Assembly (NCBI GenBank): GCA_937870635.1
Contig: CALMZP010000083.1
Span: 5,100 to 69,099, forward strand
Length of the DNA: 64,000 nucleotides
Direction: 5' to 3'
DNA from: an uncultured Acidobacteriota bacterium
GTDB taxonomy: Bacteria > Acidobacteriota > Thermoanaerobaculia > Gp7-AA8
Both the position numbers and the translations under genes were made by a program. Positions within the stretch are counted from its first letter, which is position 1; each line of letters starts with the position of its first letter. Positions 26,859 through 52,207 of this stretch are shown in pieces. The notes under the pieces were generated by a model, which was not told where the DNA came from, did no database searches, and saw nothing but the letters and a program-made list of their open reading frames with translations.

Positions 26859-26882
26859 TCGACCCTCGTATCGCCAACATAG

Positions 26883-26920
26883 GCGGTAATGGGGCGAAAG
26901 TCAAGCGGTAGTGGGGCGAA
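26883..26920. promoter_or_regulatory. 16-bp direct repeat (gcggtaatggggcgaa / gcggtagtggggcgaa, spacing 22 bp) in the lexA upstream region
   Basis: Seen in sequence, about 25-60 bp upstream of the lexA start. Candidate operator pair; function is inferred only. Confidence 0.3.
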
Positions 26921-27039
26921 TACCCTGATCTCGGGATAGTGGTAGCGTTTGGTGGCCGGGCTGTAACAGCACCGCTATGCCGTGTTAGGAATGCCATCAT
27001 TCCGGCATCGAATGGACGTTTCTCATATCTCCGTCATTA

Positions 27040-27252
27040 TTGCGGCAGCCGTCCTTTATCAACTACGTTGGCGGTCAAATGGCCGTGTTCGCCACCAGCA
27101 GCGTCTTAGGCGTTGACCTGATCTTTTCATTCCTTATTTTGCTGATGATGAAGAACAAAAACTTCACCGCACGATATGGCACGGCAGCCGTAAGTCTCGG
27201 TATGCTTGCCGTATCGGTACCCTGCGGTTTACTCATGTGGAGATGGTTATGA
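27040..27252 (+). CDS. small hydrophobic protein (2 predicted TM), hypothetical
   Basis: ORF in a low-GC islet. Its stop overlaps the next ATG (ATGA). Confidence 0.3.
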   Translation: MRQPSFINYVGGQMAVFATSSVLGVDLIFSFLILLMMKNKNFTARYGTAAVSLGMLAVSVPCGLLMWRWL

Positions 27253-27380
27253 ACCCGATCCTGGCAGTGCTGCTGATTTCACTCATTCCGACGATTCTCG
27301 GCGCGGTCGGGTTTAATTTGGCTGCCAAATACTTTTCCCACGGCGAAGATACCGGAAAGTTTCACCGGCACGCGCTCTGA
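27249..27380 (+). CDS. 43-aa hydrophobic micro-protein, hypothetical
   Basis: MNPILAVLLISLIPTILGAVGFNLAAKYF... Translationally coupled to the upstream ORF and followed by a strong terminator. Confidence 0.3.
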   Translation: MNPILAVLLISLIPTILGAVGFNLAAKYFSHGEDTGKFHRHAL

Positions 27381-27410
27381 GAACAATCAACCAGAAAGCA
27401 ACAACGCAAC

Positions 27411-27439
27411 AGGGGCCGCGCAAGCGGCCCTGTTCTTTT
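27411..27439 (+). terminator. rho-independent terminator
   Basis: aggggccgcgcaagcggccctgttctttt. Confidence 0.65.
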
Positions 27440-28240
27440 AGGCAGCTTTGGCATCTGTCCAAAGGTCGAGCGCCAGCAAGTCACTTGCCGTCCACACGTA
27501 CTCCGTCAGACCGGCCACCATCGCCGGAGTCTTGCCACCGAGTGATTTGTGCTTGCGGCAGAAGTTGTAGAAAACCACGTTGAGCGCGAGCATGTGTCGG
27601 TGATTCTCGAACTTCTTCGAGAATCCATTTGTGAGGCGCGTGAAACGCCGATTCTGCATACGAAGGGTCAGGTTCCAACGCTCCATGTATGCGGTCGAGA
27701 TGTTCTTGTCGCGGCTGCCGGTATTCGTGCTCGATGATGGAACCCGCGTTCTGAGAGATCCCGCGTCGTTGATGCAACTTGGTTTCCATGGGGAAGAATC
27801 GGTACTCCGTCGATCGGATGGTCGCGGGTCCGAACCCCGTGCTGACGTGGCGGACTCCGATGAACGCGATAAGTCATCAGCACGACGAAGAGTCGGTAAG
27901 AACTCGATCCGACGCGCAGAACGCACGCGAAGCCGTCACGCGTGGTCCGCATTTCAGCTTGCGCCGCGTTCTTGTTTGGCACCACGGTCGCCACCGGCAT
28001 CGCGACGGGTGGCCTCTTGATTGGCCTGGGTCTGGCCGCCGCGACCATCGTCGGCGCCGTTGCTGGAACCGGCACCATTGCCGCCATGACGGTGCGGCAT
28101 GACGTTAAGTCGCTACGCTGCCTCCCTCTCGGCCCACATGTCCAGCGCGAGCATGTTACTCGCGGTCCAGACGTAATCAGTCAGACCAGTGACCATCGCC
28201 GGAAGTCTTGCCTGCGAGTGACTTGTAGTTACCCGTCACT
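27438..28240 (-). pseudogene. decayed IS transposase remnants (IS1/IS1595-like DDE transposase 3' end, two copies, frameshifted)
   Basis: 27438-27700 encodes ...ERWNLTLRMQNRRFTRLTNGFSKKFENHRHMLALNVVFYNFCRKHKSLGGKTPAMVAGLTEYVWTASDLL*. A second, 1-nt-frameshifted copy of the same C-terminus (KSLAGKT..PAMVTGLTDYVWTASNMLALDMW) lies at 28118-28232. Upstream portions are broken into three frames. Confidence 0.6.
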
Positions 28241-28268
28241 CGTCACTCCCAAGGTCAGGTTCCAGAGG

Positions 28269-28643
28269 CTACGAGGACGACTTCCGAATGACCTGGGCCA
28301 TCGTGGCCGCCATCGTCTTCGCCGAGAACGGCTTCGGCGCGACCAGGCGCACTTCCGGGAAGTAGTCGACCAGTTCCGACTGGTAATCCTTCAGGAAGCG
28401 GGTCATGACGATGACAGGCACCTTGTGGCTGTTCGCGCGAAGGACGTCGAGAATCTGCAGGCCATGTCCGTCGGGGAGAAGAAGATCGAGGAGGATGCCG
28501 TCGAACTTGCCATGCTCGAGAGCCATCACGGCTGCAGTCGCCGTAGGCGCGAACTCGGTGTCCAGCGACTGAGCGCGAAACGCGTCGTCGATTTCGGCTA
28601 CGAGCGTGGAATCGTCTTCCACGACGAGAACATGCGGGCTCAT
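28269..28643 (-). CDS. single-domain response regulator (CheY-like receiver)
   Basis: VLVVEDD...DGILLDLLLPDGHG...K: phospho-acceptor Asp and conserved Lys present. Confidence 0.8.
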   Translation of the reverse strand: MSPHVLVVEDDSTLVAEIDDAFRAQSLDTEFAPTATAAVMALEHGKFDGILLDLLLPDGHGLQILDVLRANSHKVPVIVMTRFLKDYQSELVDYFPEVRLVAPKPFSAKTMAATMAQVIRKSSS

Positions 28644-28661
28644 CCGGAGTCCCCTTATAGC

Positions 28662-28690
28662 AAAAAAAAGCGCCCGCGGGGCGGGCGCTT
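28662..28690 (-). terminator. rho-independent terminator (A-tract/T-tract on both sides, possibly bidirectional)
   Basis: aaaaaaaagcgcccgcggggcgggcgctt, downstream of the CsgG-like gene on the minus strand. Confidence 0.55.
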
Positions 28691-28714
28691 GTCGAAGTTC
28701 ATTGCTGGTGCGGA

Positions 28715-29419
28715 TCAGTCGAGTTTGATCGACTTCTTGGTCTTCTCGCGGCGGGAGGTGTCCTTCTGGTCGAACTCCTCCATGCAGTCGTCCTGGTCGA
28801 CCATGGCGCAGGTGAGGTAATCCGCGATCTCGATGATCACGCCGCGGATCGCCTTGCCGGCCGGCGTCTTCTCGTGCTTCGCGAGGTTGCCGCCGAATCC
28901 ACCGCGATAGAGGCCAAGGTTAATGCCCTTCCCGGTGGAGCGCGCTTCGACGCTACGCGAATACTCGATGTCGCCGGTGGTCGTGTCGACGACGCGCAGG
29001 TCGACTGCGATGTAGGCGTCCTGCTTCTTGCCGCCGACGTTGATGCCGCGGAAGCTGATTCCGCCGCCCGTGCCCGCGGTGTTTTCCTCGAACGAGGAGA
29101 CCGTTGCGAAGATGAGGTATTTCGCGCCGGTGACTTTGCCGGCCTTCACTCGCGTGGCTTTGTTGACCCGGCCGGACTCGGAGAGGTCCTGCTCGGCGAG
29201 GATCTTGTCGAGTTTCTCGCGCTCGACGACACGGAACTTGCCCGTGGCCGCGAGCTCGTTGCTCAGCATGCCCGCCAGTTCCCGACCCACGCCGCCATAC
29301 CACCAGCCGGCGCTCGTCTCGTTGGTGAATTCCGCGACGCCTACCGCAGGATCAGCGGCAAACGCAGAAAAAGACATCAGAAGAAGAAGCAGGGACACAG
29401 AAAGCACGGACGTACGCAT
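28715..29419 (-). CDS. CsgG-family lipoprotein (curli-type secretion channel fold)
   Basis: Signal peptide, then VAEFTNETS...LSNELAATGKFRVVEREKLDKILAEQDLSESG matches the CsgG family pattern. GAGGAG RBS before the MRTSVL start. Confidence 0.75.
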   Translation of the reverse strand: MRTSVLSVSLLLLLMSFSAFAADPAVGVAEFTNETSAGWWYGGVGRELAGMLSNELAATGKFRVVEREKLDKILAEQDLSESGRVNKATRVKAGKVTGAKYLIFATVSSFEENTAGTGGGISFRGINVGGKKQDAYIAVDLRVVDTTTGDIEYSRSVEARSTGKGINLGLYRGGFGGNLAKHEKTPAGKAIRGVIIEIADYLTCAMVDQDDCMEEFDQKDTSRREKTKKSIKLD

Positions 29420-29535
29420 TTGATCTCCTCGGTTGTAAATGGATGGACCCCGAAATTGGAAATAACAGTATAACCCGACCCCCGGCCCGGCCGTGAGCCC
29501 CCTCACGGTCTGTGGTCAGCTTCAGTGATCAGCGG

Positions 29536-30402
29536 TCAGTGATCCGTGGTCTGCCCACGGCCCAGTCCGCTCATGGCGTCGTCCCAGAACTCGACCCGGT
29601 TCCGACCATGCTCCTTGGCGATGTACAGCGCCTTGTCGGCGCGGTCGATGAGCCCCGCGCCCGTGATGACGGTGTCGCTCGATTCGATGCCGGCCACGCC
29701 GATCGACGCCGTGACGACGACGGACGCGCCCGGCACGTCGACGCCCGTCATCTCGAGCCGTTCACGGATCCGGTTTGCGACGACGGACGTGTTGTCGAGC
29801 TTCGTCTCCGGCAGAAGGATGCAGAATTCCTCGCCGCCGTATCGCCCCGGCACGTCGTAGACACGGCAGCTTTCCCGAAGCAGCTTTCCGACCGATTGCA
29901 GGACCTGGTCGCCGGCCATGTGTCCGTACGTGTCGTTCACGTTCTTGAAATGATCGATGTCCAGCATCATCAGGGAGAGCGGTGCGCCATGGCGCAGCGA
30001 CCGGTTGATCTCGGCCTCGATCTTGTCCATCACGTACCAGCGGTTGTACAGACCGGTGAGCGAGTCGCGCGACGAGTTTTCGGAAAGAATCCGGTGCTTG
30101 ACGATCAGGTCGAGATTCTCGCGCTCGAGCCGGTTGACCCGGACCTGGAGCTCCTGCACGCGCACGGTGTTCTCTTCGGCGTGCCGGATCAGGTCGAAAA
30201 TCTCGTAGATGAGGTGGCGTTCGGCTTCGCTGAATGGCGCCCCACCCGCGGAGACCACGCTCAGATGGGGCAGCGGAAGGTGAACGGTGAATGCATCGGT
30301 TCGTTCCGCGCTCTGGCTGTCCACCACACGGAGCGGTTTCCTGAGCAGCGACGAAAGGGGGGCGAGGATGCGCGCGCCTGCCACATCGATGTCACGGGAC
30401 AT
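29536..30402 (-). CDS. diguanylate cyclase (GGDEF domain)
   Basis: GGDEF active site RYGGEEF, with DxLTGLYNR and HxxGD upstream motifs. Confidence 0.9.
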   Translation of the reverse strand: MSRDIDVAGARILAPLSSLLRKPLRVVDSQSAERTDAFTVHLPLPHLSVVSAGGAPFSEAERHLIYEIFDLIRHAEENTVRVQELQVRVNRLERENLDLIVKHRILSENSSRDSLTGLYNRWYVMDKIEAEINRSLRHGAPLSLMMLDIDHFKNVNDTYGHMAGDQVLQSVGKLLRESCRVYDVPGRYGGEEFCILLPETKLDNTSVVANRIRERLEMTGVDVPGASVVVTASIGVAGIESSDTVITGAGLIDRADKALYIAKEHGRNRVEFWDDAMSGLGRGQTTDH

Positions 30403-30478
30403 TGTTTGTCTCCTGGGAGGCCGCGAAGTATATGCGACGCTCGAGGCCGCCGCCAGCCTTCGATTTTGGTGAAAGGAA

Positions 30479-31432
30479 TCAGGCCCGCTGCTCGATGCGA
30501 AACCGGTTCACGCCCGCGCGGATCTCGTCCCCGCGCTGCACCTTCGTGTTCCGTGCAGGAAGTGTGTTGAGAAAGGTCCCGTTGCGGCTGCCGAGGTCGC
30601 GGACGCGAACCGTGCCGTCGGGATCGGCGATCACTTCGAAATGCTTGCGCGAGAGGAATTCGTCAGGAACCTGTACGTGACCTTCGCGGCCTACGATGAG
30701 GCCCGTCGCCGGAATCTCGAACTCCTGTCCGACGAGAGGCCCGTCGACGCAGACGAGCATGTTGCGTTTGCCGGCCCCCCCCTCGCGGGCCTTGCGCTCC
30801 AGCACGCGAAGGACCGAATCGTCGAACACATCGCTGTCGGCCAGCGCGATCGGCTCGACGGCCTTTCCGGGTTCCTCCGTGGGCTCGATGCTCACCAGAG
30901 CCGATCCGCAGCGCAGGAGATGCACTCCTTCGGCGAGGGTCGCTTCGGTGATCCGCTCGCCATCGAGGAACGTGCCCATGTGCGAGTCGGCATCGCGCAC
31001 GACGATCTCTCCGTTGCGGAGTGAGATCGAGCAGTGACGGATGTCGAGCTCTGCTTCCTCCAGCTCGATGTGCGATCCCTTCCGGCCGATCCACAGCGGA
31101 TGCTGACCGAGCGTGAACACGGTACTCATCGATTCGTTGACACCGCGCGCGACGATGCGCACCGAGCGGCTCACCATCTCGGCAGCGCTCATCGCCTCGG
31201 GCTCGTCGGAGATCTCCTCGAACGGCGAGGACTTCTGTTCGTCGACGCGGTAACCCTGCAGATCGACTTCCTTGATCTTGCCGGGATCGAGCATGCGCGC
31301 CAGGAGGGCCGCCTTGTTGCCGGCGATCCATTCGCCGCAATGACAGGTGGCGATGGAGTTGGGCAGCCGGACTGCGACCACGCCCGGAACGTCGTAGGCC
31401 TGGCCGCATTTCGGACAGCGGATGAGCGGCAT
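30479..31432 (-). CDS. Zn-ribbon plus tandem FHA-domain protein
   Basis: MPLIRCPKCG...C.C zinc ribbon. Two FHA cores (LWIGRKG...SISLRNGEIVVRDADSHMGTFLDGERI and IVGREG...SRKHFEV...VRVRDLGSRNGTFLN). ATG at 31432 preferred over the GTG that lies inside the repeat arm. Confidence 0.8.
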   Translation of the reverse strand: MPLIRCPKCGQAYDVPGVVAVRLPNSIATCHCGEWIAGNKAALLARMLDPGKIKEVDLQGYRVDEQKSSPFEEISDEPEAMSAAEMVSRSVRIVARGVNESMSTVFTLGQHPLWIGRKGSHIELEEAELDIRHCSISLRNGEIVVRDADSHMGTFLDGERITEATLAEGVHLLRCGSALVSIEPTEEPGKAVEPIALADSDVFDDSVLRVLERKAREGGAGKRNMLVCVDGPLVGQEFEIPATGLIVGREGHVQVPDEFLSRKHFEVIADPDGTVRVRDLGSRNGTFLNTLPARNTKVQRGDEIRAGVNRFRIEQRA

Positions 31433-31452
31433 GGGCGAATGATAGAACACCG

Positions 31453-31620
31453 GGTGCTTGGTGCTTGGTGCTTGGTGCTGCGATGCGGGTCAGCCACGTC
31501 ATCCCGAGGCGCGAAGACGCCGAAGGACCCCCAGGATGCGAAGATCGCGTCGATCGAGGCCCTTCTCTGTCTACGCGGCTCAGGGTGACGTGATCACCAA
31601 GCACCAAGCACAAAGCACCG
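31453..31620. repeat. composite palindrome: GGTGCTT x4 arms flanking a cacgtcatcc...gaaggacc core
   Basis: Left arm 31453-31481, right arm 31594-31620 (inverted). The core is related to the 56569-56668 palindrome. Confidence 0.7.
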
Positions 31621-31655
31621 AGACTCAGCACCTGCGCTACACTCCCGGTGGTCTC

Positions 31656-33743
31656 ATGCTGGTACCGGAAGAACAGGGGCAGGGGGCGGTTGGCGCCGGG
31701 ATGCGCACGAAGTTCATCGTGGCCTTCGCGGTGCAAACGATCTTCATCGCGGTCGCCATCGTTGTCCTTCAGCAGTGGCTCGTCAGGCGCGCGATGCAGC
31801 GGCAGACGGTCGACCAGGGGCGGGCCATCGCCAACACGGTCGACTCCACCGCTTCGTACTACGTTCTTTTCGGTCTCACCGACGATCTGAAGAACATCAC
31901 CACGGAACTGAAACGGAACACATCGATCGAGTATGCCGACTTCATCGGCGCCGACCGCTCGATCTTCGCCGCGACGCATCCCGAGGTTCCCGAGAGCGTG
32001 AAGACCGCGCCGGTCCGGAGGACCGACGGCCTGCCCGTCGGTGGCGGCCTTCATTACTTCATCGTCCCTTTCTACGAATCGCGTGCTGATGCCGCGAATC
32101 CGGCGACGCTGCCGCGCGGCTACTTCAGGCTTCTCACCAATGACAGCCACGCGACCGCGGCGATCGCCGATCTGCAGAAGTGGACGATCGGCACGGTGGT
32201 TGGCGCACTGGCGCTTTCCATCGCCCTGGCCTACTTCGCCGCGACGTTTTTCATCCGCCCCATTCTCAGCCTGGCCGGAACCGCGCAGCAGATCGCCCAG
32301 GGCGATCTGACGCAGCGCGCGGCCGTGCCTTCGACCGACGAAGTCGGAATTCTGGCCGAGGCGTTCAACTCGATGTCGGCGAATCTCGAACGGACCGTGC
32401 GGAGCGTCCTTCAGTCGCAGGCTAAGCTGAAATCGGTCGTCGAGACGGTCGACAGCCGTTCGCGCACGATGATCGATCGTGTCGACGAGCAGCGTTCCAT
32501 CATCGACGAGACGTCTCACTCGATCGACCGCCTCAACAGCGGTGTCCGCAAGATCACGGACAACGTCGAGGCGCTTTCTGCATCTTCGGAGGAGACATCG
32601 TCCTCGATGCTGGAGATGGTTGCTTCGATGGAAGAAGTCAGCCGGCATACGGACACGCTCTGGAGCTCCGTCGAGGAGACGGCCTCCGCCACTCACGAAA
32701 TGGTGTCGAGCATCAACGAGGTCGATCAGAACGTGGTCTACCTCCGCAACTTCGTCACCGAGACCTCGTCGTCGATGGTCGAGATGAGCGCGTCGATCGC
32801 CGAGGTGGAGTCGAACGCGGCGACGTCGTACGATCTGGCGCTCGCCGTTGCCGACGCGGCCGAATCGGGAATGAAGGCCGTTCGCGAGACCATCGAAGGG
32901 ATGGAGCAGATCCGCCGCTCCGTCGCTGAATCCAACGCGGTCGTCTCCCGCCTCGGCGACCGCTCCCTCGCCATCGGCAGGATCCTCAACGTCATAGAAG
33001 ACATCGCCGAGCAGACGAACCTGCTGGCACTGAACGCGGCGATCCTCGCTGCCCAGGCCGGCGAGTACGGCAAAGGGTTCTCGGTGGTGGCCGCGGAGAT
33101 TCGCGAGCTCTCCGAACGGACCGCGTCATCGACGCGCGACATCGGCGCGCTGATCAAGTCCGTGCAGGAAGAAGTCGGCAACGCGTCGAAGACGATGACC
33201 TCCGGATCGGGCCTCGTCGAAGAAGGCGTGAAGCTCTCCCACGAGGCGGGCCGCGCCCTCACACGCATCCTCGACTCCGCATCCAAAGCTTCGGGCATGG
33301 GCAAGGAGATCGCCAACGCGACGCGCGAGCAGGCCGTCGGAAGCGAGACCGTGACCCGCTCGGTCGAGCGGCTGCAGGAAATGGTGCGGCAGATCAGCGC
33401 CGCCACGGCGCAGCAGGCCGCCGGCTCGGACCATATCCTCAAGGCCGTCGAATCGATGCGCGAGGTGACGAAGTACGTGCGCCAGGCGATGGTCGAGCAG
33501 AAATCGGGTTCGACGATGATCTCGACAGCGACCGAGCGGATGATCGAGATGATCCACGAGATCTTCCAGGTCGCCGCCAATCAGGCCGGTGAGAGCGAGA
33601 AGATCGTCTCGATCATGGAGCAGGTGAAGATGATCGCCGAGGGGAATCGGACTTCGGCAGGCGACATGAGCGAGGCCATCTCGCTGCTCAACGAGGCCAT
33701 TCGCAGCCTCGACGACGAAGTGCGCAAGTTCCGGGTGCACTGA
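31656..33743 (+). CDS. methyl-accepting chemotaxis protein (TM-HAMP-MCP signal domain)
   Basis: HAMP (IAQGDLTQRAAVPSTDEVGILAEAFNSM) and the highly conserved MCP hairpin (EQTNLLALNAAILAAQAGEYGKGFSVVAAEIRELSERT). Confidence 0.85.
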   Translation: MLVPEEQGQGAVGAGMRTKFIVAFAVQTIFIAVAIVVLQQWLVRRAMQRQTVDQGRAIANTVDSTASYYVLFGLTDDLKNITTELKRNTSIEYADFIGADRSIFAATHPEVPESVKTAPVRRTDGLPVGGGLHYFIVPFYESRADAANPATLPRGYFRLLTNDSHATAAIADLQKWTIGTVVGALALSIALAYFAATFFIRPILSLAGTAQQIAQGDLTQRAAVPSTDEVGILAEAFNSMSANLERTVRSVLQSQAKLKSVVETVDSRSRTMIDRVDEQRSIIDETSHSIDRLNSGVRKITDNVEALSASSEETSSSMLEMVASMEEVSRHTDTLWSSVEETASATHEMVSSINEVDQNVVYLRNFVTETSSSMVEMSASIAEVESNAATSYDLALAVADAAESGMKAVRETIEGMEQIRRSVAESNAVVSRLGDRSLAIGRILNVIEDIAEQTNLLALNAAILAAQAGEYGKGFSVVAAEIRELSERTASSTRDIGALIKSVQEEVGNASKTMTSGSGLVEEGVKLSHEAGRALTRILDSASKASGMGKEIANATREQAVGSETVTRSVERLQEMVRQISAATAQQAAGSDHILKAVESMREVTKYVRQAMVEQKSGSTMISTATERMIEMIHEIFQVAANQAGESEKIVSIMEQVKMIAEGNRTSAGDMSEAISLLNEAIRSLDDEVRKFRVH

Positions 33744-34225
33744 TGGCCGACGGAGCGAACGGGCTTCGCCTCATCACGTTCAGGGTCGGGCCGGAGACCT
33801 TCGTCGTGGACATCATGGCCGTCCGCCAGATCATTCCTTACAGTGGATCGACCTCCGTCCCCACTGCACCGTCGTTCGTGGAGGGAGTGATCATCGTGAG
33901 GAACGACGTCATCCCCGTCGTCGACCTCCGCCGTCGTCTCTATCCGGATCTCGGCACAACCGACCGGGAGCCGCTTGTGCTCATCACGCATTCGACCGCC
34001 GGCACGATCGGCCTGAAGGTCGATGCGGTGCGGCGCATCATCAACGTCTCTCGCGACAAGCTGCTGCCGCCGCCGCCGCTGATCCGCGGTATCCGCGGAG
34101 AGCTGCTCATCGCGCTCATTCCGCACGGCGAAGAGGTCTACCTGCTCATCGATCTCGAAAGCGTGCTGACGGGCGACGAGCGCAGGGAGCTGGCCGATGC
34201 GCGGCTGCAGGGGAAGGCGGACTAG
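33743..34225 (+). CDS. cheW: chemotaxis coupling protein CheW
   Basis: CheW fold (FRVGPETFVVDIMAVRQII...VIPVVDLRRRL...GLKVDAV). The ATG overlaps the MCP stop (TGATG). Confidence 0.9.
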   Translation: MADGANGLRLITFRVGPETFVVDIMAVRQIIPYSGSTSVPTAPSFVEGVIIVRNDVIPVVDLRRRLYPDLGTTDREPLVLITHSTAGTIGLKVDAVRRIINVSRDKLLPPPPLIRGIRGELLIALIPHGEEVYLLIDLESVLTGDERRELADARLQGKAD

Positions 34226-34233
34226 GCCGTTTG

Positions 34234-34316
34234 GATCCTGGACCCTGGACCTTGGAATTGAGAGTCGAATGAGTACTCACGTCATCCTCGGCCGCGAAGA
34301 CGGTCGAAGGACCTCC
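34234..34316. repeat. GGACCTTG-like units plus a half copy of the cacgtcatcc...gaaggacc core
   Basis: gatcctggaccctggaccttgg, then cacgtcatcctcggccgcgaagacggtcgaaggacctcc. Confidence 0.45.
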
Positions 34317-34384: not shown

Positions 34385-35254
34385 TCACTCGCGAATGGCC
34401 TGAACGATCCACCCGTCGCCGGTCAGGTTGTCAACAGTGGCGCCGTAGGCACTCCACATGCCGGGCGTTCCCTGCGGAATCACGCTGGCCAGGAGTGGTC
34501 CCCAATTTCCAGCGGGAACGCCCACCTGGGCCATCGAGCAGCTCGGAACATCGAATGTCGCCGTTCCCGGCCCCTGCGTTGTGAGACCGTAGATTTCAGC
34601 TACAAATCTCTGCGGCACGCCTGAGCTGTCGAGGTTCACGACCCCGACATTCGTTCGATATTGCGCGTCGTGGCGGAGACCGATGATGTAGGTGCGAACC
34701 GCGCCGGAGAGGTCGCTCGCCGATACACCGGGGAAAGGCATGGAAACGGATCCGGAGGCGTTCGGCTGCAGCGTCCAGATTCGGGAAACAGCATCGATCC
34801 GAGCGTTCGGATCGACGGCGCCGGCGGCCGTAACTCCGACGATGAGCAGCGCTCCAAGCCCGCTGGCATTCAGCGTCTTGCCGACGAAGTCATCGTAATA
34901 CCGCCAACCCGAACCGAGGTCGATGATCCTCGTCGGATTATTGCAGTTGTTCGCGCCGCTCGGCATCCAGGCGACTTCGACTCGTTGAGACGTCCGGTAA
35001 TTGATCAGCGAAAGGTCCGTTCGGAAGTGTGTCCCGCCCGCGCCGGGCGTGTTGCCGGCCGCCGGAATCAGGACGGCCCCGGCGGGACGATTCGTCGAAA
35101 CGACCGCCGCTCGGAACGAGGCGTCGAAATCGCGGAGCTCGTCGACGAGTTCTCCGACGGTTCTGCCACTGTGAGCGAATTGCGCCTCCGATGGGAACGC
35201 CCAGCCGGCGATGAAGACGAAAACAACGTAGAGCGATGCGCGTTTTGAGGTCAT
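34385..35254 (-). CDS. secreted hypothetical protein (no recognisable domain)
   Basis: Signal peptide MTSKRASLYVVFVFIAGWAFPSEAQ. Gly/Thr/Asn-rich mature part. Divergent from the ECF sigma operon. Confidence 0.5.
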   Translation of the reverse strand: MTSKRASLYVVFVFIAGWAFPSEAQFAHSGRTVGELVDELRDFDASFRAAVVSTNRPAGAVLIPAAGNTPGAGGTHFRTDLSLINYRTSQRVEVAWMPSGANNCNNPTRIIDLGSGWRYYDDFVGKTLNASGLGALLIVGVTAAGAVDPNARIDAVSRIWTLQPNASGSVSMPFPGVSASDLSGAVRTYIIGLRHDAQYRTNVGVVNLDSSGVPQRFVAEIYGLTTQGPGTATFDVPSCSMAQVGVPAGNWGPLLASVIPQGTPGMWSAYGATVDNLTGDGWIVQAIRE

Positions 35255-35387
35255 TCCTGTTCTCCTCGCTGCGAATTTGGGCAGCTATCAACAACTCCCA
35301 TGCAGCGAATACGTGCGGCATGGCATTTCGGAATAACTTGACGTCATCGCTTCATGAGCATACTTTTTCGGAAACCACAATCAATCA

Positions 35388-35885
35388 ATGTTGTTCCGTG
35401 CCGCCGCCTCGCACGTATCCGCCATGGGAGACTTTGAAGATCTCTACGAACAGCACGTGAATGCCGTCTTCCGGTTCAGCCTGAGCTGCGTCGGTCGCCG
35501 GGACGTCGCCGAAGACATCACCAGCGAAGCCTTTCTCGCTCTTTATCGAAAGCTGGACGAGATCGATCGGAATCAATTGCCGGCATGGCTGCTCACGGTG
35601 GCGAAGAATCGGGCCCGCGACTACTGGCGGCATCGCCAGGTGGAGGAGCGGCACACCCAGCAGCCGGCGACGACGCAGGAGCCTTCCATCACATCTCTGG
35701 AGAAGCTGTTGGCCGATGCGACTGTGCTCAAACCGGTTCACCGGCTTTGCCTCAAGCTTCGCTATGTCTACGGCATGTCGCTGTCCGAGATTACAGTGCA
35801 GACGGGCTTGTCCGAAACACAGGTGAAGGGTCACCTCCAGTACGGACGCCGGCTGCTGCGAGAGCAGTATCGGAAGGTGTCGTGA
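35388..35885 (+). CDS. ECF-type RNA polymerase sigma factor
   Basis: Sigma-70 region 2 (DLYEQHVNAVFRF...EDITSEAFLALYRK...AWLLTVAKNRARDYWR) and region 4 (MSLSEITVQTGLSETQVKGHLQYGRRLLRE). The alternative start is ATG 35424. Confidence 0.85.
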   Translation: MLFRAAASHVSAMGDFEDLYEQHVNAVFRFSLSCVGRRDVAEDITSEAFLALYRKLDEIDRNQLPAWLLTVAKNRARDYWRHRQVEERHTQQPATTQEPSITSLEKLLADATVLKPVHRLCLKLRYVYGMSLSEITVQTGLSETQVKGHLQYGRRLLREQYRKVS

Positions 35886-36649
35886 TGGTGAACCGCGCAC
35901 CGGTCTTCGATCCTGACGAGCAGCAATTCATGGAGGAGTTCGGCTTGAGGCCGCGTGAGGGCAGTTGTCCTCCGCTCGACCAGCTGCTCGCTGCGAACGC
36001 CGGCGCGATGTCCGGCGCTCATCTCGAGACCTGCGCCTCGTGCGCTGCGCTGGTCCGCGATTTCACGTCGAGCGAAGCGGCTGATCTGCAACCGCCGGAG
36101 AAGGAGCGAATTCGCACTCGCGTCCGCGACCGCATCAGGACCGACCGCCGCCGCGCCCTCGCCATACCGCTCGCCATCGCCGCGGCCGTGGCGATCGTCG
36201 TCATCGGTCTCTCGCTCTGGTCGCCGCCTCGCCCCGCGGATGCCCCGCCCCGATCGACACCCGTCGCGGCAACGGCCGGCGAGGGCGCCGTCGCCACACG
36301 GAGAACGCCGCCGTCCGTGCCCGCTCGAGCGCTCGAGCCCGCGCCGGTGCGATTGCCGGCGGCGATGCTCACCTGGCGCAACGATGCCGATCGCCAGTTC
36401 GCCGGCGACTTCGGCCCCGCCATCGCGCTCTACCGCGACGCAAAATACGCCGAGGCGGCGGAGCAATTCGAGCAGGTCTCCAGACGCCATCCCTCCTCCG
36501 CTGAGGCCTTCTTCTACCTTGGCGTCTCACAACTGTTCCTGCGACGTCACGCCGATGCGATCGCAAACCTGCAGCGCGCGAGACAGCTCGATCGCGGTGC
36601 ACTGTCGGATCTCATCGACCGGTATCTCGCATTTGCGCACCAAAGGTGA
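35885..36649 (+). CDS. anti-sigma factor (ZAS-like HxxxCxxC, single TM, periplasmic TPR-like domain)
   Basis: The start overlaps the sigma stop (TGATG). Motif HLETCASCAAL, TM segment ALAIPLAIAAAVAIVVIGLSLW, C-terminal TPR-like helices. Confidence 0.65.
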   Translation: MVNRAPVFDPDEQQFMEEFGLRPREGSCPPLDQLLAANAGAMSGAHLETCASCAALVRDFTSSEAADLQPPEKERIRTRVRDRIRTDRRRALAIPLAIAAAVAIVVIGLSLWSPPRPADAPPRSTPVAATAGEGAVATRRTPPSVPARALEPAPVRLPAAMLTWRNDADRQFAGDFGPAIALYRDAKYAEAAEQFEQVSRRHPSSAEAFFYLGVSQLFLRRHADAIANLQRARQLDRGALSDLIDRYLAFAHQR

Positions 36650-36655
36650 AACCCC

Positions 36656-39043
36656 ATGTCGATACCCCTGATCCTCGCGGCCGTTCTGATCAGTGGCAGT
36701 GAACCCGATTGTCTGATGGCTGCGCGCGCTCAGTACAAGGAAGCAACGGCGGCATTCAAGGCCAGTGATACGGATCGCGCGCGGAAGCTCTATCGCGAGG
36801 CGATCATGGCCTTCACAGAGTTGGAAGCATGGCCCGACTTGCTCAGGTCGTATCACGCCTATCTGTTCGTCGTACCTCATTCCGAGGAACACGACACGTT
36901 CACACGAGGCCTCGATCTCGCCCGCCGCCTGGGCAGTGAGCTTTTCGAAGGCCAGATCCTCCACGCGCACGCTGACAAAGTCTTCGGTCGCGGTGACTAT
37001 GCGCAATCAGCCGAGATCCTCGAAACGGCGATCGTTCTGCTCGAACGATCCGATGGCTCGATGTACCTCGCAGACGCTCTCACGAGTCTGGGACGTCTCC
37101 ACCGCGCTCACGGCCGGCCGGACCTTGCGTTGCCGATCTACGACCGAGCGTTGCGCATCCAGGAAGGGCTCGGCGCAGACCTGGCTGCGATCCAGACGAT
37201 CAACGCCATCGGCATCGCGTATCTGCATCTGGACCAACCGGAAAAGGCGCTCGAACAGTCCGAGCTCGGCTTGCGTAAAGCGCTTGAAACGAACTCCGCA
37301 CGCCACATCAACTTCATGCGCGGATCCGTAGCCGCCGCTCACATTTCGCTCCAGCAATACGAGAAGGCCATTCCGCTGCTGCAGCAGGTTCTCGCGGAAC
37401 CGATCACTCCGTATCTCGCCGCGTACCGCAACTTGAGTCTCGCGCAGGCGTACCTCGGTCTGGGCAGGTACACCGAAGCGATCGACGCGGCGGACAAAGC
37501 CATCGAGCTGTCAAAGGCTGCCGGAGTTGGAGTGGAACCGAAGCTCCCAGCGCTGTTTGCCCGCGCGAGGGCGAAGGCGAGGCTCGGGCGCCAGGCCGAG
37601 GCCATGGCCGACGTCGAGGAGAGTCTCCTCTCCATCGAGAACATACAGGCCAGGCTCGTCCCCGAGGATTTCATGAAGCGAGGATTCATCGATACGTATC
37701 AGACGGTCTTCGGACTCGCGATCGAGCTGCAGAGCGATCGCGGTGCGCATGCCGAGGCATTGCAGACGGCCGAGCAGGCGCGGGCGCGATCGTTTCTCGA
37801 CCTCCTGGCGACGCGCCAGATCGACCCTTCCCCTCTGGTCATGCGGAGCAGTTCCTCGCAGCCGGTGCTGCCGAGCTTCGTGTCCGCCGAGGCTCTGTCC
37901 GGCGAGGAGATCGCCGTCACCGCGCGCGATCTGCGATCCACATTGCTCATCTACTGGGTCAATGAAGACAAGACCTTCATCTGGGTCGTCGACCCCGATG
38001 GAACCATCCACGGCCGAACCGTGCGCATACGTGCGCAGCGTCTCGCCAGTCTGGTGCGACAGAGCTGGGAACAGACCGCTTCCACGCCGACACGCGGGCT
38101 TCTTCTCCGCGGCGGAGAGACGATGACGATCGCGAGGATGGAGCGAACGGCGTGGGCCGAGCTCTATCGCCATCTGATCCTGCCGGTGCGGGACCTCCTT
38201 CCGTCGCAGCGCGGAAGCCTGCTGACCGTCATTCCACATGGGCCATTGTTTCGCCTCTCCTTCGCCGGTCTTCTGGATGAGAAGGACCGCTACCTGGTCG
38301 AGTCGTACGCGATTCACTCCGCGCCGGCGGTCTCGGTTCTGCGATTCATCGCCTCGCGAACGGACGATCGGGACGCGGATGGATACCTGCTTCTCTCGAA
38401 TCCTCGCTTCGGCGCGCCGCCCGACACGAAGGCGCTACCGGCGCTCCCCGGATCAGAGCGCGAAGTGAAATCGATCGCACGACTCCTTAGCAACGAAACA
38501 CGGACGATCCTCAACGGCGGCAACGCCTCGGAGAAAGAGCTTCGAAAGTCGATCGAGGGAAAAGCGGTCCTTCATTTCGCCACACATGGGATCGTGCGGG
38601 ACGATCAGACGCTCGATTCCTTTCTGGCGCTTGCCGCCGGCGACGGTGACAAGAGCAATGACGGCCGCCTCACCGCTGAAGAGATCTACACGCTGAACCT
38701 CGACGCTGATCTCGTCGTCCTCAGCGCCTGCCGGAGCGCGCTCGGAAAAGTATCGGGTGACGGCGTAGCCGGCTTCACCCGGGCGTTCTTCTACGCCGGA
38801 GCGGCGTCGGTGGTGGCAACGCTGGGGGACGTGGCCGACGAGCCGACGTCCTCGCTGCTGCGCGACTTCTATCAGGCGCTGCGCAACGGTTGGTCAAAGA
38901 GCCGCGCCCTTCGCAGCGCGCAACTGGCCATGCTGCGGCGCCTGCGCGCGGGCGAGGTGACCGTCCAGACCATGGCCGGCCCGGCCACACTTCCCGAACA
39001 CCCGATTTTCTGGGCGAGTTTTGTCCTGCAGGGGAGGCCTTGA
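36656..39043 (+). CDS. TPR-repeat plus CHAT-domain (caspase-like) protein
   Basis: N-terminal about 450 aa of TPR repeats. The C-terminal CHAT domain has a His (HFATHGI) and Cys (LVVLSACRSALG) dyad. RBS aaggtga before the ATG. Confidence 0.85.
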   Translation: MSIPLILAAVLISGSEPDCLMAARAQYKEATAAFKASDTDRARKLYREAIMAFTELEAWPDLLRSYHAYLFVVPHSEEHDTFTRGLDLARRLGSELFEGQILHAHADKVFGRGDYAQSAEILETAIVLLERSDGSMYLADALTSLGRLHRAHGRPDLALPIYDRALRIQEGLGADLAAIQTINAIGIAYLHLDQPEKALEQSELGLRKALETNSARHINFMRGSVAAAHISLQQYEKAIPLLQQVLAEPITPYLAAYRNLSLAQAYLGLGRYTEAIDAADKAIELSKAAGVGVEPKLPALFARARAKARLGRQAEAMADVEESLLSIENIQARLVPEDFMKRGFIDTYQTVFGLAIELQSDRGAHAEALQTAEQARARSFLDLLATRQIDPSPLVMRSSSSQPVLPSFVSAEALSGEEIAVTARDLRSTLLIYWVNEDKTFIWVVDPDGTIHGRTVRIRAQRLASLVRQSWEQTASTPTRGLLLRGGETMTIARMERTAWAELYRHLILPVRDLLPSQRGSLLTVIPHGPLFRLSFAGLLDEKDRYLVESYAIHSAPAVSVLRFIASRTDDRDADGYLLLSNPRFGAPPDTKALPALPGSEREVKSIARLLSNETRTILNGGNASEKELRKSIEGKAVLHFATHGIVRDDQTLDSFLALAAGDGDKSNDGRLTAEEIYTLNLDADLVVLSACRSALGKVSGDGVAGFTRAFFYAGAASVVATLGDVADEPTSSLLRDFYQALRNGWSKSRALRSAQLAMLRRLRAGEVTVQTMAGPATLPEHPIFWASFVLQGRP

Positions 39044-39044
39044 G

Positions 39045-39191
39045 GATTCACCACAGAGGCACAGAGGACACAGAGTTCGTTCCGAAAGGCCATGCGTTTT
39101 ACGAAGGGATCCGTCACTCGTCACTCGTCACTCGTCACTCGTCACTCGTCACTCGTCACTCGTCACCCAAAGGTCCAAGGTCCGAGGTCAC
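39045..39191. repeat. mixed tandem repeats: CACAGAGG x3, CGTCACT x7, then (C)AAGGTCC units
   Basis: Visible in sequence immediately after the CHAT gene stop. The CGTCACT-AAGGTC combination also occurs at 28226-28250. Confidence 0.6.
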
Positions 39192-40245: not shown

Positions 40246-40312
40246 TTTTGGATTTGCGATTTTGGATTTTGGATTGAACCCCAAATCCAAAATCCAAAAT
40301 CCAAAATCGAAA
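40246..40312. repeat. TTTTGGA/TCCAAAA inverted-arm palindrome between hldA and hldC
   Basis: ttttggatttgcgattttggattttggattg aacccc aaatccaaaatccaaaatccaaaatcgaaaa. Confidence 0.75.
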
Positions 40313-40801
40313 ATGACAACAAACGCTCCTATCGTCGAAGAAGCTGAGTTGACCCGAATCGTCGAAGAAGAACGCCGGGCCGGACGCACGATTGCATTCG
40401 CCAACGGCGTCTTCGACATCCTCCACGTCGGCCATGTGCGTTATCTCCAGGGAGCGGCCGCGGTCGCGGACCGGCTGATCGTGGCGGTCAACAGCGACGA
40501 ATCGGTCCGCGAGCTCAAGGGCGCGGGCCGCCCGGTGACGGGTGAGCGGGAACGCGCCGAGATCATCTCCGCGATCCGCGGTATCTCCTGGGTCACCATC
40601 TTCCGGGAGAAGAGTCCGGCGCGCCTTCTCGCCGTGCTGCGCCCCGACTTTCAGGCGAAGGGGACTGATTACACGCCCGACACCGTGCCGGAGGCCTCCA
40701 TCGTGCGAGGGTACGGCGGGAAGGTCGTGATCGTGGGCGATCCGAAGGATCACTCGACGACCGATCTCCTCCATCGGATGAAGAAGAGCCCGGGGAACTG
40801 A
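40313..40801 (+). CDS. hldC: D-glycero-beta-D-manno-heptose-1-phosphate adenylyltransferase (RfaE domain II / HldC-like)
   Basis: Cytidylyltransferase-like motif (FANGVFDILHVGHVRYLQ...ISW). Start at MTTNAP, because the upstream ORF part lies in the palindrome. Confidence 0.85.
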   Translation: MTTNAPIVEEAELTRIVEEERRAGRTIAFANGVFDILHVGHVRYLQGAAAVADRLIVAVNSDESVRELKGAGRPVTGERERAEIISAIRGISWVTIFREKSPARLLAVLRPDFQAKGTDYTPDTVPEASIVRGYGGKVVIVGDPKDHSTTDLLHRMKKSPGN

Positions 40802-42475: not shown

Positions 42476-42603
42476 CTGGACCTTGGACCTTGGATCTTCG
42501 ATCTTGGGAGAGGCGGCCGCACGGGGTGGTGTCGCTGGCTCGATCGCGCGAATCACGTTCTGCAGATTTCCAAGGTCCAAGGTCCAGGGTCCAAGGTCCA
42601 CCA
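42476..42603. repeat. GGACCTTG inverted-arm palindrome with about 55-nt spacer
   Basis: tggaccttggaccttggatcttcgatcttgg ... ccaaggtccaaggtccagggtccaaggtcca. Confidence 0.7.
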
Positions 42604-42817: not shown

Positions 42818-44533
42818 ATGAGCGTACGCCTCGGCGAACTGCTGACTAAAGCCGGGCTGATCAATCAGGATCAGCTCAAAGATGCACTCAAGGTGCAGAA
42901 GGAAACGGGCAGCAAGCTCGGTGAGACCCTCATCAAGCTGGCCTTCGTGACCGAAGAAGACATCACCGAATGCCTTTCCCAGCAGTTCGGCGTTCCTTCG
43001 ATCAACCTCTCTCACTTCGAGATCGATCCCAGCGTCATCAAGCTGATCCCGGCTGACGTCGCGCGTAAGTACAACATCCTTCCGGTCAACAAGCCGGGGG
43101 CGACGATCACCATCGCCATGGCCGATCCGACGAACGTGTTCGCCATGGACGACATCAAGTTCATGACCGGCTACAACGTCGAGCCGGTCGTGGCCTCGGA
43201 ACTGGGGATCAAGGCCGCCATCGACAACTACTACGGGTCGACGTCATCGCTCGAGCTGAAGAAGGTCATGGAAGACCTTCAGCAGACCGAGGCCGCGGAC
43301 CTCGAGGTTCTCGAAGAGGAAGAAGAGCTGGATGTAGCGGCTCTGGCGGAAGGCGCGGAAGAGGCGCCGGTCGTCAAGCTCTGCAACCTGATCCTGACCG
43401 ACGCCATCAAGCGCGGCGCGTCGGACATTCACATCGAGCCTTACGAGAAGGAGTACCGCGTCCGGTTCCGCGTCGACGGCACGCTGTACGAGATCATGAA
43501 CCCGCCGCTCAAGCTGCGCGACGCCATCACCTCGCGCATGAAGATTCTGGCGAAGCTCGACATCTCGGAGAAGCGCCTCCCGCAGGACGGGCGCATCAAG
43601 CTGAAGATGAAGCTCAACGACAAGAACAAAGAGCTCGACTTCCGCGTGTCGGTGCTGCCGACGCTCTTCGGCGAAAAGATCGTCATGCGTCTTCTCGACA
43701 AGGACAACCTTCGTCTGGACATGACCAAGCTCGGCTTCGAGCCGGAGTCGCTGGCGGTTTTCGAAGAGGCGATTTTCAAGCCGTGGGGCATGGTGCTCGT
43801 GACCGGGCCGACAGGATCGGGCAAGACCAATACGCTCTATTCGGCGCTGTCGAAGGTGAACTCGCCCGAAGTGAACATCATGACCGCCGAGGATCCGGTG
43901 GAGTTCAACCTTCCGGGGATCAATCAGGTGCAGATGAAGGAGTCGATCGGGCTGAATTTCGCCGCGACGCTCCGGTCGTTCCTCCGGCAGGATCCGAACA
44001 TCATCCTGGTGGGCGAGATCCGCGACTTCGAAACGGCGGAGATCGCGATCAAGGCCGCACTCACGGGGCACCTCGTGCTCTCCACGCTTCACACGAACGA
44101 CGCCCCCTCGACGATCAACCGTCTGATGAACATGGGGATCGAGCCGTTCCTGGTGGCTACGTCCGTGCAGCTGATCGCCGCGCAGCGCCTGGCGCGGCGC
44201 ATCTGCGGCGCCTGCAAAGAGGTGGTGGACGTGTCGCCGCAGGCGCTCATCAACCTCGGATACAAGAAGGATGAGGTGGGGACGTTCACCGTCTACAAGG
44301 GGCGGGGCTGCGACAAGTGCAACAACACCGGTTACAAGGGGCGGGTGGGCCTGATCGAGGTCATGAAGATCGACGACGACCTCCGGGAGCTCATTCTCTC
44401 GGGCGGGACGGCCATCGACATCAAAAAGAAAGCGGCGGAAAACGGCATGATCAGCCTTCGCCGTTCGGGTTTGGTTAAAATCAAGGACGGTGTCACGACG
44501 ATTGAAGAAGTCGTCCGGGAGACCGTGCTGTAG
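42818..44533 (+). CDS. pilB: type IV pilus assembly ATPase PilB (GspE family)
   Basis: N-terminal GSPII domain, Walker A GPTGSGKT, and the tetracysteine motif C..C...C..C. Confidence 0.9.
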   Translation: MSVRLGELLTKAGLINQDQLKDALKVQKETGSKLGETLIKLAFVTEEDITECLSQQFGVPSINLSHFEIDPSVIKLIPADVARKYNILPVNKPGATITIAMADPTNVFAMDDIKFMTGYNVEPVVASELGIKAAIDNYYGSTSSLELKKVMEDLQQTEAADLEVLEEEEELDVAALAEGAEEAPVVKLCNLILTDAIKRGASDIHIEPYEKEYRVRFRVDGTLYEIMNPPLKLRDAITSRMKILAKLDISEKRLPQDGRIKLKMKLNDKNKELDFRVSVLPTLFGEKIVMRLLDKDNLRLDMTKLGFEPESLAVFEEAIFKPWGMVLVTGPTGSGKTNTLYSALSKVNSPEVNIMTAEDPVEFNLPGINQVQMKESIGLNFAATLRSFLRQDPNIILVGEIRDFETAEIAIKAALTGHLVLSTLHTNDAPSTINRLMNMGIEPFLVATSVQLIAAQRLARRICGACKEVVDVSPQALINLGYKKDEVGTFTVYKGRGCDKCNNTGYKGRVGLIEVMKIDDDLRELILSGGTAIDIKKKAAENGMISLRRSGLVKIKDGVTTIEEVVRETVL

Positions 44534-44551
44534 GGCTCTGGGAGAAGATCA

Positions 44552-45679: not shown

Positions 45680-45693
45680 CGCCGGCCGGAAGC

Positions 45694-45897
45694 GAGTAGG
45701 AGGAAGCAATGCCGACATTCGAGTGGAAGGTCGGCAAGTTCATGCCGAGCGTAGCGAGGCATCAGCGGTACCGGGCGGAGCAGGCGCGACCTGCTGGAAG
45801 GTAATGAGTCAGGGCTTCGGGTTCCGGAGATCCCTCGCTTCGCTCGGGATACAGTCGTTGGAGTAGGAGGAAGCAATGCCGACATTCGAGTGGAAGG
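45694..45897. repeat. 37-bp perfect direct duplication of the pilC RBS, start and first 7 codons, flanking a 130-bp insert with a ccctcgcttcgctcggga hairpin
   Basis: gagtaggaggaagcaatgccgacattcgagtggaagg at 45694-45730 and again at 45861-45897. The upstream copy opens a 31-codon decoy ORF. Confidence 0.7.
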
Positions 45898-47078: not shown

Positions 47079-47107
47079 CACCCGGCGACAGAAGCATGCA
47101 TTCGGAA

Positions 47108-47138
47108 GGGGCGACGGAAACGTCGCCCCGATTTTTTG
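47108..47138 (+). terminator. rho-independent terminator after pilC
   Basis: ggggcgacggaaacgtcgccccgatttttt, followed by a second small hairpin catccctcgcttcgctcgggatg. Confidence 0.65.
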
Positions 47139-52173: not shown

Positions 52174-52207
52174 GATCTTCCGGCATCGGCGCGCTGCGCC
52201 GATCCGG

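Follow-up and report, generated by a model that had tools for sequence, protein, structure and literature searches.

We report here a class-wide, conserved divergent unit of five genes in Thermoanaerobaculia, found in a 64-kb stretch of contig CALMZP010000083.1 from an uncultured Acidobacteriota bacterium; this whole stretch of 64,000 nucleotides is referred to below as the window. In one direction the unit encodes a transmembrane chemoreceptor (methyl-accepting chemotaxis protein, MCP) and a CheW protein, and in the other a zinc-ribbon/double-FHA adaptor, a soluble diguanylate cyclase and an exported, non-lipidated member of the CsgG family (Table 1). Our findings support an uncharacterised conserved signalling unit involving cyclic di-GMP (c-di-GMP). 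The reading that we prefer, with a probability of roughly 0.4, is that of an envelope- or surface-sensing c-di-GMP module and not of a curli-like secretion system. It is a new arrangement of familiar signalling parts, not a new kind of system.

A class-wide divergent unit

A sequence-only reading of this stretch had proposed an island of six genes, the sixth being a single-domain response regulator. All six open reading frames (ORFs) are confirmed at the positions then given, with a strong coding signal (G+C at third codon positions 0.80-0.84; sequence G+C 63%) and with Pfam matches that agree with each domain call. In the synteny survey, which used CsgG-like orthologues on long contigs, one genome per GTDB species and tblastn with all proteins of the window, the arrangement of MCP and CheW divergent from the FHA, cyclase and CsgG-like genes was found in 31 GTDB species-representative genomes and in 3 metagenome contigs. 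Among the species representatives, the hosts are all Thermoanaerobaculia or unclassified Acidobacteriota; the labels of close homologues put the organism of the window in Thermoanaerobaculia as well. Hence five of the six genes are syntenic in related genomes, as the sequence-only reading would have it, and the response regulator is not.

The MCP gene is present in every locus whose contig reaches upstream of the FHA gene. The cyclase gene is missing in two Thermoanaerobaculia species (L018 and L019), in which the FHA gene stands directly upstream of the CsgG-like gene. Gene-sized insertions are common at both flanks of the unit, with a widened offset between the CsgG-like gene and lexA in about 13 of 28 loci, and with variation at the CheW/PfkB junction as well; at the MCP/FHA junction, however, none occurs in 29 informative loci, and none was seen inside the FHA-cyclase-CsgG-like operon in orthologous loci. 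In three species the MCP and CheW genes are separated by unrelated insertions. Beyond the insertions the flanks are collinear in relatives, with PfkB, heptosyltransferase, DUF3108 and PilB genes on one side and LexA, helix-turn-helix (HTH), sulfatase and ValS genes on the other.

Table 1 Features of the divergent unit and heptamer arrays, in positions of the window
Feature	Position	Strand	Evidence and remarks
CheW	33743..34225	+	Pfam CheW 1.8e-28; 160 aa
Transmembrane chemoreceptor (MCP)	31656..33743	+	Pfam HAMP 1.8e-15, MCPsignal 2.1e-46; 695 aa
Divergent control region	31433..31655	.	Two -10-like boxes
Heptamer-repeat hairpin element	31453..31622	.	Inverted heptamer arrays around nested imperfect inverted repeat
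Zn-ribbon/double-FHA adaptor	30479..31432	-	Pfam FHA, two stretches, 1.1e-22; 317 aa
Soluble diguanylate cyclase	29536..30402	-	Pfam GGDEF 1.8e-45; 288 aa
Exported non-lipidated CsgG-family protein	28715..29419	-	Pfam CsgG 1.2e-50, 172 bits; 234 aa
Intrinsic terminator	28668..28690	-	Hairpin and T-run; closes FHA-cyclase-CsgG-like operon
Single-domain receiver	28269..28643	-	Pfam Response_reg 1.9e-14, 54 bits; 124 aa
Heptamer arrays of the window	1147-1177, 11644-11714, 28234-28248, 29522-29548, 31453-31619, 34232-34256		
Heptamer arrays of the window, further	39112-39189, 40247-40314, 42477-42600, 48861-48928, 50699-50810, 56509-56781		

A chemoreceptor and CheW with no kinase nearby

The MCP consists of a first transmembrane segment, a periplasmic domain of ~130 aa without a Pfam match, a second transmembrane segment, a HAMP domain and a signalling domain of 64 heptads. 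The signalling hairpin comprises 32 + 32 heptads, with arms of 224 and 225 residues around the tip AGEYGKGF, and bears five methylation-consensus motifs; column identity over the cytoplasmic domain is 0.9-0.99 in 26 orthologues. By its arm length, rather than by class-specific profiles, the receptor is placed in the 64H class, which is recognised in the literature (PMC8235581). An NCBIfam sensor match to a 'YfiR-like-associated kinase' reached only 41 bits against a cut-off of 194; this label was not used, the match probably being carried by the transmembrane segments and HAMP.

The start of the MCP gene lies most likely at 31656 and not further downstream, because the upstream ATG is conserved and the orthologues are 694-695 aa long. 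The MCP-CheW pair of the sequence-only reading is retained in its domains and divergent position, with the receptor start moved upstream. The CheW start codon overlaps the MCP stop codon (ATGA), and CheW is conserved beside the MCP in relatives at 60-76% identity.

With these features the MCP resembles receptors whose CheA and methylation enzymes are encoded at another place in the genome. Our scan covered essentially all long ORFs of the window and of 5.5 kb beyond its left edge; in this stretch it found no CheA, CheB, CheR, Hanks kinase or PP2C phosphatase, and no CheY other than the single-domain receiver, in agreement with the earlier remark that these chemotaxis proteins are not encoded nearby. 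In relatives, too, the stretches of about 8-9 kb to the left and right of the CsgG-like gene contain no CheA, CheY, CheR or CheB that would complete a chemosensory pathway of the Che, Wsp or Tfp type. In the literature we found nothing relevant on chemotaxis in Thermoanaerobaculia.

Back-to-back promoter-like boxes and a dispersed palindrome

Two -10-like boxes face away from each other in the control region. TATCAT (31439-31444, minus strand) is separated by 6 intervening nt from the ATG of the FHA gene, and TACACT (31638-31643, plus strand; AGTGTA on the other strand) lies 12 nt before the ATG of the MCP gene. Both are conserved in about 30 orthologous loci (L008-L041), at 7-9 nt by the script's count from the FHA start (7 in the window) and at about 12 nt from the MCP start. 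No Shine-Dalgarno sequence precedes the FHA gene. This arrangement suggests back-to-back promoters that would give leaderless or near-leaderless transcripts. In most species the MCP and FHA start codons are 45-90 nt apart; if the shorter MCP start, corresponding to 31701, is taken as the end point, the intervals in relatives are mostly 77-115 nt.

From locus to locus the boxes are 3 to 193 nt apart, and the spacer shows no conservation of sequence. In the window it holds the palindrome that had been noticed in the shared promoter region, a 170-nt element of composition (GGTGCTT)x3.9 ... (CACCAAG)x3.6, in which arms of 96% complementarity (31453-31477 and 31595-31619) flank a 35-nt imperfect inverted repeat nested between them. 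Folded as DNA, the spacer holding it reaches -58 kcal/mol (z = -6.5). The element is absent from most relatives; in several species this spot is occupied by different heptamer arrays, and the same strain's short-read contigs end within the array. Since such arrays are scattered through the window and same-strain contigs break here, the palindrome is a copy of a dispersed genomic element in a tolerant spot and not a dedicated operator. The palindrome thus exists where it had been described and is not specific to this locus; its interpretation as a conserved operator was rejected on the variable length of the spacer and on its sequence, which differs between species.

Tandem heptamer arrays fill the intergenic regions of the window; most of them form inverted pairs capable of folding into long hairpins, and they often follow directly on stop codons (Table 1), as with (GATTTTG)n/(AATCCAA)n, (TGGACCT)n/(TCCAAGG)n and (TGAAGGA)6.7/(TCCTTCA)16.7. 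Perfect arrays of period 7 occur at 15.6 per 100 kb in the window, as against zero for periods 4-6 and 8-10; related loci of Thermoanaerobaculia have 2.8 and gammaproteobacterial loci 0.2 per 100 kb. They could be terminator-like, similar to repetitive extragenic palindromes (REP-like) or slippage-prone.

The organization of this region bears directly on whether the two arms belong together. They may instead be two unrelated units that happen to lie side by side, MCP and CheW being an ordinary receptor pair of some remote Che or type IV pilus chemosensory pathway and the FHA-cyclase-CsgG-like operon acting independently, with an adjacency that reflects slow genome rearrangement in the class. 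Such a history would fit the collinear flanks in the same genomes and the derivation of all the evidence from a single class, just as a distant pathway would fit the conserved CheA/CheW-binding tip and the methylation motifs, which are those of a standard receptor, and the three species in which MCP and CheW are separated by unrelated genes. It sits less easily with the short distance between the start codons and the conserved back-to-back boxes, and with the fact that insertions have struck the flanks repeatedly and the MCP/FHA junction in none of the 29 informative loci. We therefore hold two independent units to be somewhat unlikely.

An FHA adaptor and an apparently intact diguanylate cyclase

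The FHA adaptor is predicted to be cytoplasmic, with no transmembrane segment. Its N-terminal CxxC...CxC (C6, C9, C30 and C32) is invariant in 33 orthologues, and Pfam offers for this part only a sub-threshold match to Zn_ribbon_4; the two Pfam FHA stretches behind it bear out the pair of FHA domains originally proposed to follow an N-terminal zinc ribbon. Tested for the signature G-R, S-R-x-H and S/T-x-N-G, the second domain (FHA2) is canonical throughout, its GREG, SRKH and SRNGT (GR...SRxH...SRNGT) being invariant in the same 33 orthologues, and FHA1 is degenerate, with (S/D)xRH and SHMGT.

The soluble cyclase, which has no transmembrane segment, scores 177 bits against TIGR00254 (cut-off 37). 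Its GGEEF motif (G189-G190-E191-E192-F193) and an RxxD I-site (R180-x-x-D183) 5 residues upstream of the active site are both invariant in 62 sequences, from which the enzyme appears to be catalytically intact and product-inhibitable. In an AlphaFold2 model (pLDDT 84.8) a helix (2-20) and three strands are followed by a 50-residue helix (59-108) and then by the GGDEF domain. The N-terminal module has no Pfam match, and an identity taken from fold searches was rejected for it, the matches all being driven by the GGDEF domain and the stalk. SiaD is the best NCBIfam match of the cyclase (NF038266), at 179 bits against an equivalog cut-off of 290 and with only the GGDEF domain aligned. Orthologue alignments show no conserved threonine in the cyclase N-terminus, so that the target of the FHA adaptor is left without a candidate there.

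Rfam returned nothing at gathering thresholds over the whole window, and between 28200 and 31800 only a chance-level match to sraL, and the idea of a c-di-GMP or other riboswitch in the operon gaps was rejected. An anti-phage defence system was likewise considered and dropped, as PADLOC gave no meaningful matches, only coiled-coil noise on the MCP.

A CsgG-family protein without a lipid anchor

The CsgG-like protein scores 172 bits against Pfam PF03783 (cut-off 20.8) and covers profile positions 9-207 of 210. Searched against the PDB, a profile of 77 CsgG-like orthologues matches only CsgG chains (E = 4e-12), and a sequence search likewise finds CsgG alone. Residues 37-172 align with mature CsgG 53-192, at a sequence identity of about 20-26%. 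Like CsgG of E. coli (PDB 4UV3, 4UV2 and 4Q79), the protein shares the alpha/beta core of the family, a first barrel hairpin of 21 aa (114-134, aligned without gaps to CsgG 134-154) and an aligned constriction loop. A second hairpin (164-184) also appears to be present: its first strand, 164-172, aligns to CsgG 184-192, and the rest is Gly-rich and about 5 aa shorter. The constriction of the nonameric CsgG channel is formed by a loop carrying Y51, N55 and F56; at the position of N55-F56 the orthologues have an invariant W39-W40 instead. In the AlphaFold2 monomer (pLDDT 70.7) hairpin 1 is extended and hairpin 2 falls below a pLDDT of 50. Foldseek with this model gave the non-lipidated pre-pore form of CsgG as the best match (4UV2, E = 7e-9), followed by CT253, GNA1162, FlgT and PelC; LpoB and FlgT_M are Pfam side-hits.

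Unlike CsgG, the protein has neither the N-terminal Cys lipid anchor nor the linker of roughly 30 aa. Its signal peptide is of the signal peptidase I type and ends SAFA|ADP, and its first cysteine is residue 204. According to the alignment, none of the 77 orthologues has a lipobox, a Cys in its signal peptide or any Cys ahead of residue 204. An early Cys is equally absent from 45 orthologues in orphan contexts, mostly from Gammaproteobacteria with a few Thermoanaerobaculia paralogues, and a lipobox-like motif is absent in 125 of the 146 nearest cluster representatives (clusters at 50% identity, representatives that start with Met). The protein differs from CsgG further in a conserved extra Cys pair (C204/C212) and in a conserved basic C-terminal tail that ends KTKKSIKLD (…RREKTKKSIKLD). 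Its ATG at 29419 is preceded at 6 nt by the Shine-Dalgarno sequence GAGGAG. In E. coli CsgG, lipidation targets the protein to the outer membrane; without its lipid the protein is a soluble pre-pore (PDB 4UV2).

Identity to the CsgG-like protein is 66-99% among the listed Thermoanaerobaculia, 60-85% across the species-representative loci of the unit and 54-63% for orthologues in Rudaea, Dokdonella, Pseudomarimonas and other Lysobacterales; 54-63% between two phyla is very high for an exported protein. Only 34 cluster representatives score below 1e-30. The subfamily, with its WW motif and basic tail, also occurs, within the same identity range, in some Oceanospirillales/Alcanivoracaceae. In Gammaproteobacteria it is an isolated gene, with pgi or an aminotransferase gene on one side and rluB-scpB-scpA on the other (orphan loci of this type: L044, L047-L049, L051, L053, L054, L057 and L059-L090). 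The neighbours there were recognised from their sequences as housekeeping genes (pgi, rluB, scpA/B, aminotransferase, nitrilase), for which reason the search for functional partners through these orthologues was abandoned. Some Thermoanaerobaculia also carry the CsgG-like gene in unrelated contexts, without FHA, MCP or cyclase genes (L037, L042, L043, L045, L046, L050, L052, L055, L058 and L075).

Neither the window nor the surroundings of the CsgG-like gene in 90 related loci contain csgA, csgB, csgE, csgF or another candidate substrate gene. Judged from its sequence, the protein is a true member of the CsgG family that lacks the features of a lipoprotein and of a curli system. The lipoprotein label of the sequence-only reading has therefore to be withdrawn, as its signal peptide has no Cys and its orthologues no lipobox, and the description as a curli-type outer-membrane channel lipoprotein is not supported, there being no anchor and no curli partner or substrate genes. 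Proper alignment had been suggested as a check on the lipid anchor and the channel-forming region: the hairpins and the equivalent of the constriction loop do appear to align, and the anchor is absent throughout. We found nothing relevant in the literature on a CsgG-like protein accompanying a diguanylate cyclase, or on non-lipidated CsgG/HfaB proteins.

These results also weigh on a view in line with the one originally put forward, in which the protein is a curli- or holdfast-type secretion channel exporting a matrix component or adhesin under c-di-GMP and phospho-threonine control. The full-length Pfam match, a CsgG-length hairpin 1 with a second hairpin apparently behind it, W39-W40 placed on N55-F56, CsgG as the best fold match and a predicted active cyclase in the same operon would all suit a channel. 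Against it stand the missing lipobox, which extends from the 77 orthologues to the gammaproteobacterial members and to most of the nearest representatives, the lack of any CsgA/B/E/F-like or candidate substrate gene at this locus or the 90 related ones, and a fold that is common to the non-channel ring proteins PelC, FlgT, GNA1162 and CT253. On balance we consider a secretion channel quite improbable.

A terminator closes the operon ahead of a species-specific receiver

The CsgG-like gene is followed by a hairpin whose 10-bp stem contains 8 G-C pairs and which leads into a run of T8 (28690..28668, minus strand, TTTTTTTT). A hairpin with a T-run is found no more than 110 nt from the CsgG-like stop codon in 29 of 32 distinct orthologous loci, which indicates that the conserved transcription unit ends after the CsgG-like gene. 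That this gene has a terminator of its own had been recognised from the sequence, and the point is upheld.

The single-domain receiver, encoded on the same strand as the CsgG-like protein, lies beyond this terminator at a distance of 72 nt from the CsgG-like gene, and occurs only in contigs of the window's own strain (L001-L006). In all other species with the unit (30+) it is absent after the CsgG-like gene, which is followed there by lexA and the HTH gene, either directly or after unrelated insertions. For these reasons 26859-28714 is regarded as a variable insertion site; besides the receiver, the stretch contains the C-terminal remnant of a transposase (27438-27926, an insertion sequence remnant). 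In other species the junction between terminator and lexA holds 0 to 7 kb of unrelated genes, among them an endonuclease/phosphatase-family gene, CNNM transporters and a PemK toxin. The receiver is thus a species-specific accessory outside the conserved unit, and of the four same-strand genes grouped by the sequence-only reading, the FHA, GGDEF and CsgG-like genes remain together. By inference, the receiver gene and the heptamer palindrome were both added later and are specific to the lineage.

Could the receiver nevertheless be the CheY-like output of MCP and CheW, which would make the island a minimal chemosensory pathway? Read from its sequence, all phospho-acceptor residues are present (D10, D11, D53, T81 and K104), and its position shortly downstream of the CsgG-like gene on the same strand would be compatible with such a role. 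However, a strong terminator separates it from the operon, it is confined to this species among more than 30 that carry the unit, it sits in an insertion hot spot beside a transposase remnant, and the window encodes no CheA to phosphorylate it. We attach very little credence to this proposal.

Wider neighbourhood

Between cheW and the PfkB-type gene of the window (34385-39043) lie genes for a secreted 289-aa protein without a Pfam family match, an ECF (extracytoplasmic function) sigma factor, a TPR anti-sigma-like protein and a TPR-CHAT protease-like protein. This block is missing in relatives, where a small DUF5522 gene and PfkB come after cheW. Type IV pilus genes at 42818-48868, 8.6 kb from cheW, encode PilB with an MshEN domain, PilT, PilC and a PilS-like histidine kinase with six transmembrane segments and a PAS domain; their order relative to the unit is the same in relatives. 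MshEN is a domain type that binds c-di-GMP. A possible exopolysaccharide locus (50710-59293) contains genes for a TPR protein, a cellulose-synthase-like GT2, a GH26-like protein and a protein with CarboxypepD_reg repeats. It is followed on the opposite strand by a gene for a HAMP-PAS-GGDEF-EAL protein, a second c-di-GMP element in the window. Just left of the window, a locus of the same strain (L091, 7885-9180) encodes a 431-aa protein with a PatA_N (PATAN) domain, neighboured by genes for a TPR protein, a diacylglycerol kinase and an HtrA-type protease.

Discussion

Taken together, our findings delimit a unit whose individual parts have clear counterparts in known systems and whose combination is new. 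A precedent for the pairing of an FHA reader with a cyclase is DgcB of Bdellovibrio bacteriovorus, an FHA-GGDEF enzyme activated by a phosphopeptide, in which FHA control of a GGDEF enzyme has been demonstrated (PMC6733907; PDB 6HBZ). Both systems combine an FHA domain with the consensus for reading phospho-threonine and a GGDEF enzyme with a helical stalk, and 6HBZ is among the fold matches of the window cyclase. Unlike in DgcB, the FHA and GGDEF modules of the window are separate proteins whose interaction is putative, the FHA protein has two FHA domains and a zinc ribbon, and the cyclase has no visible conserved Thr tail.

A second parallel is SiaABCD of Pseudomonas aeruginosa, where a Ser/Thr phospho-switch governs the cyclase SiaD. 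SiaD, which is also a top fold match, resembles the window enzyme as a soluble cyclase with a stalk helix, and is regulated by a partner whose state depends on threonine phosphorylation. The locus differs in having no SiaA phosphatase, SiaB kinase or SiaC-like partner and in using an FHA protein as reader module, and its cyclase scores far under the SiaD cut-off. In the Wsp system of Pseudomonas an MCP/CheW/CheA array drives the cyclase WspR. The unit resembles it in placing a membrane chemoreceptor and CheW beside a diguanylate cyclase, plausibly as a surface or envelope sensor that feeds c-di-GMP, and structures of WspR are among the cyclase's fold matches; in contrast to Wsp, the locus has no CheA, CheR or CheB, its cyclase has no receiver domain, and an FHA adaptor and a CsgG-like protein are found instead. 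With regard to the latter, PelC, FlgT, GNA1162, CT253 and LpoB have the same alpha/beta core and often assemble into rings under the outer membrane, whereas they lack its two long hairpins and the solved examples are mostly lipoproteins.

These comparisons shape the model of an envelope- or surface-sensing module. The receptor and CheW would supply the transmembrane input, with a kinase encoded elsewhere. The canonical FHA2 would read a phospho-threonine mark and thereby gate the soluble cyclase, adaptor and cyclase together being a split-gene version of fused FHA-GGDEF enzymes such as DgcB. The CsgG-like protein would form a periplasmic or outer-membrane ring as the envelope-side partner of the unit, either as a structure whose state the receptor senses or as a pore made together with c-di-GMP. 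We infer a functional link between the two arms because of the short conserved control region, the MCP/FHA junction free of insertions and the precedent of DgcB.

In favour of this model, the domains and their catalytic and binding residues are intact and conserved, and the -10-like boxes keep fixed distances to the starts; the synteny of the five genes, the conserved operon end and, for the CsgG-like protein, its fold, apparent hairpins, Trp-Trp, signal peptide and Cys pair also speak for it. A number of observations nevertheless weigh against it. Both phosphorylation inputs are hypothetical, because no Ser/Thr kinase, phosphatase or CheA is encoded in the window and the adjoining 5.5 kb, and the cyclase N-terminus offers no conserved Thr by which a target of the FHA adaptor could be identified. 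The two species that have kept the FHA and CsgG-like genes without a cyclase indicate that c-di-GMP may not be the core output. As the CsgG-like subfamily stands alone among housekeeping genes in Gammaproteobacteria, it needs none of the unit's partners, and its structural model is of moderate confidence, with hairpin 2 not resolved. Finally, all of the evidence comes from one collinear lineage, and with the whole PilB-to-ValS stretch collinear in one class, the adjacency of the MCP gene to the operon could be the product of vertical inheritance alone.

It is tempting to speculate on a CheA-independent, trans-envelope device, in which a non-lipidated, Trp-lined ring of the CsgG family, located in the periplasm or outer membrane, would report the state of the envelope or surface to the periplasmic domain of the 64-heptad MCP, and the cytoplasmic array and CheW would recruit the FHA protein instead of a CheA kinase and so switch the cyclase. 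We regard this as a long shot, well behind the model above; if true, it would provide a new output route for chemoreceptor arrays and a sensory, rather than secretory, role for the CsgG fold.

At present the unit is a well-delimited candidate and not a discovery. It may control secretion or biofilm formation. The CsgG-like proteins make up a large, sequence-compact and non-lipidated clade with Trp-Trp at the position of the pore constriction, which prompts one to ask whether, and by what route, these proteins get to the outer membrane, and the clade could be of interest to engineers of CsgG nanopores. The lineage that carries the unit is widespread in soil and sediment, though uncultured; if its five genes cooperate, they would link chemoreceptor arrays, phospho-threonine readers and c-di-GMP, three fields of signalling commonly treated apart, to a CsgG-fold protein of the envelope.

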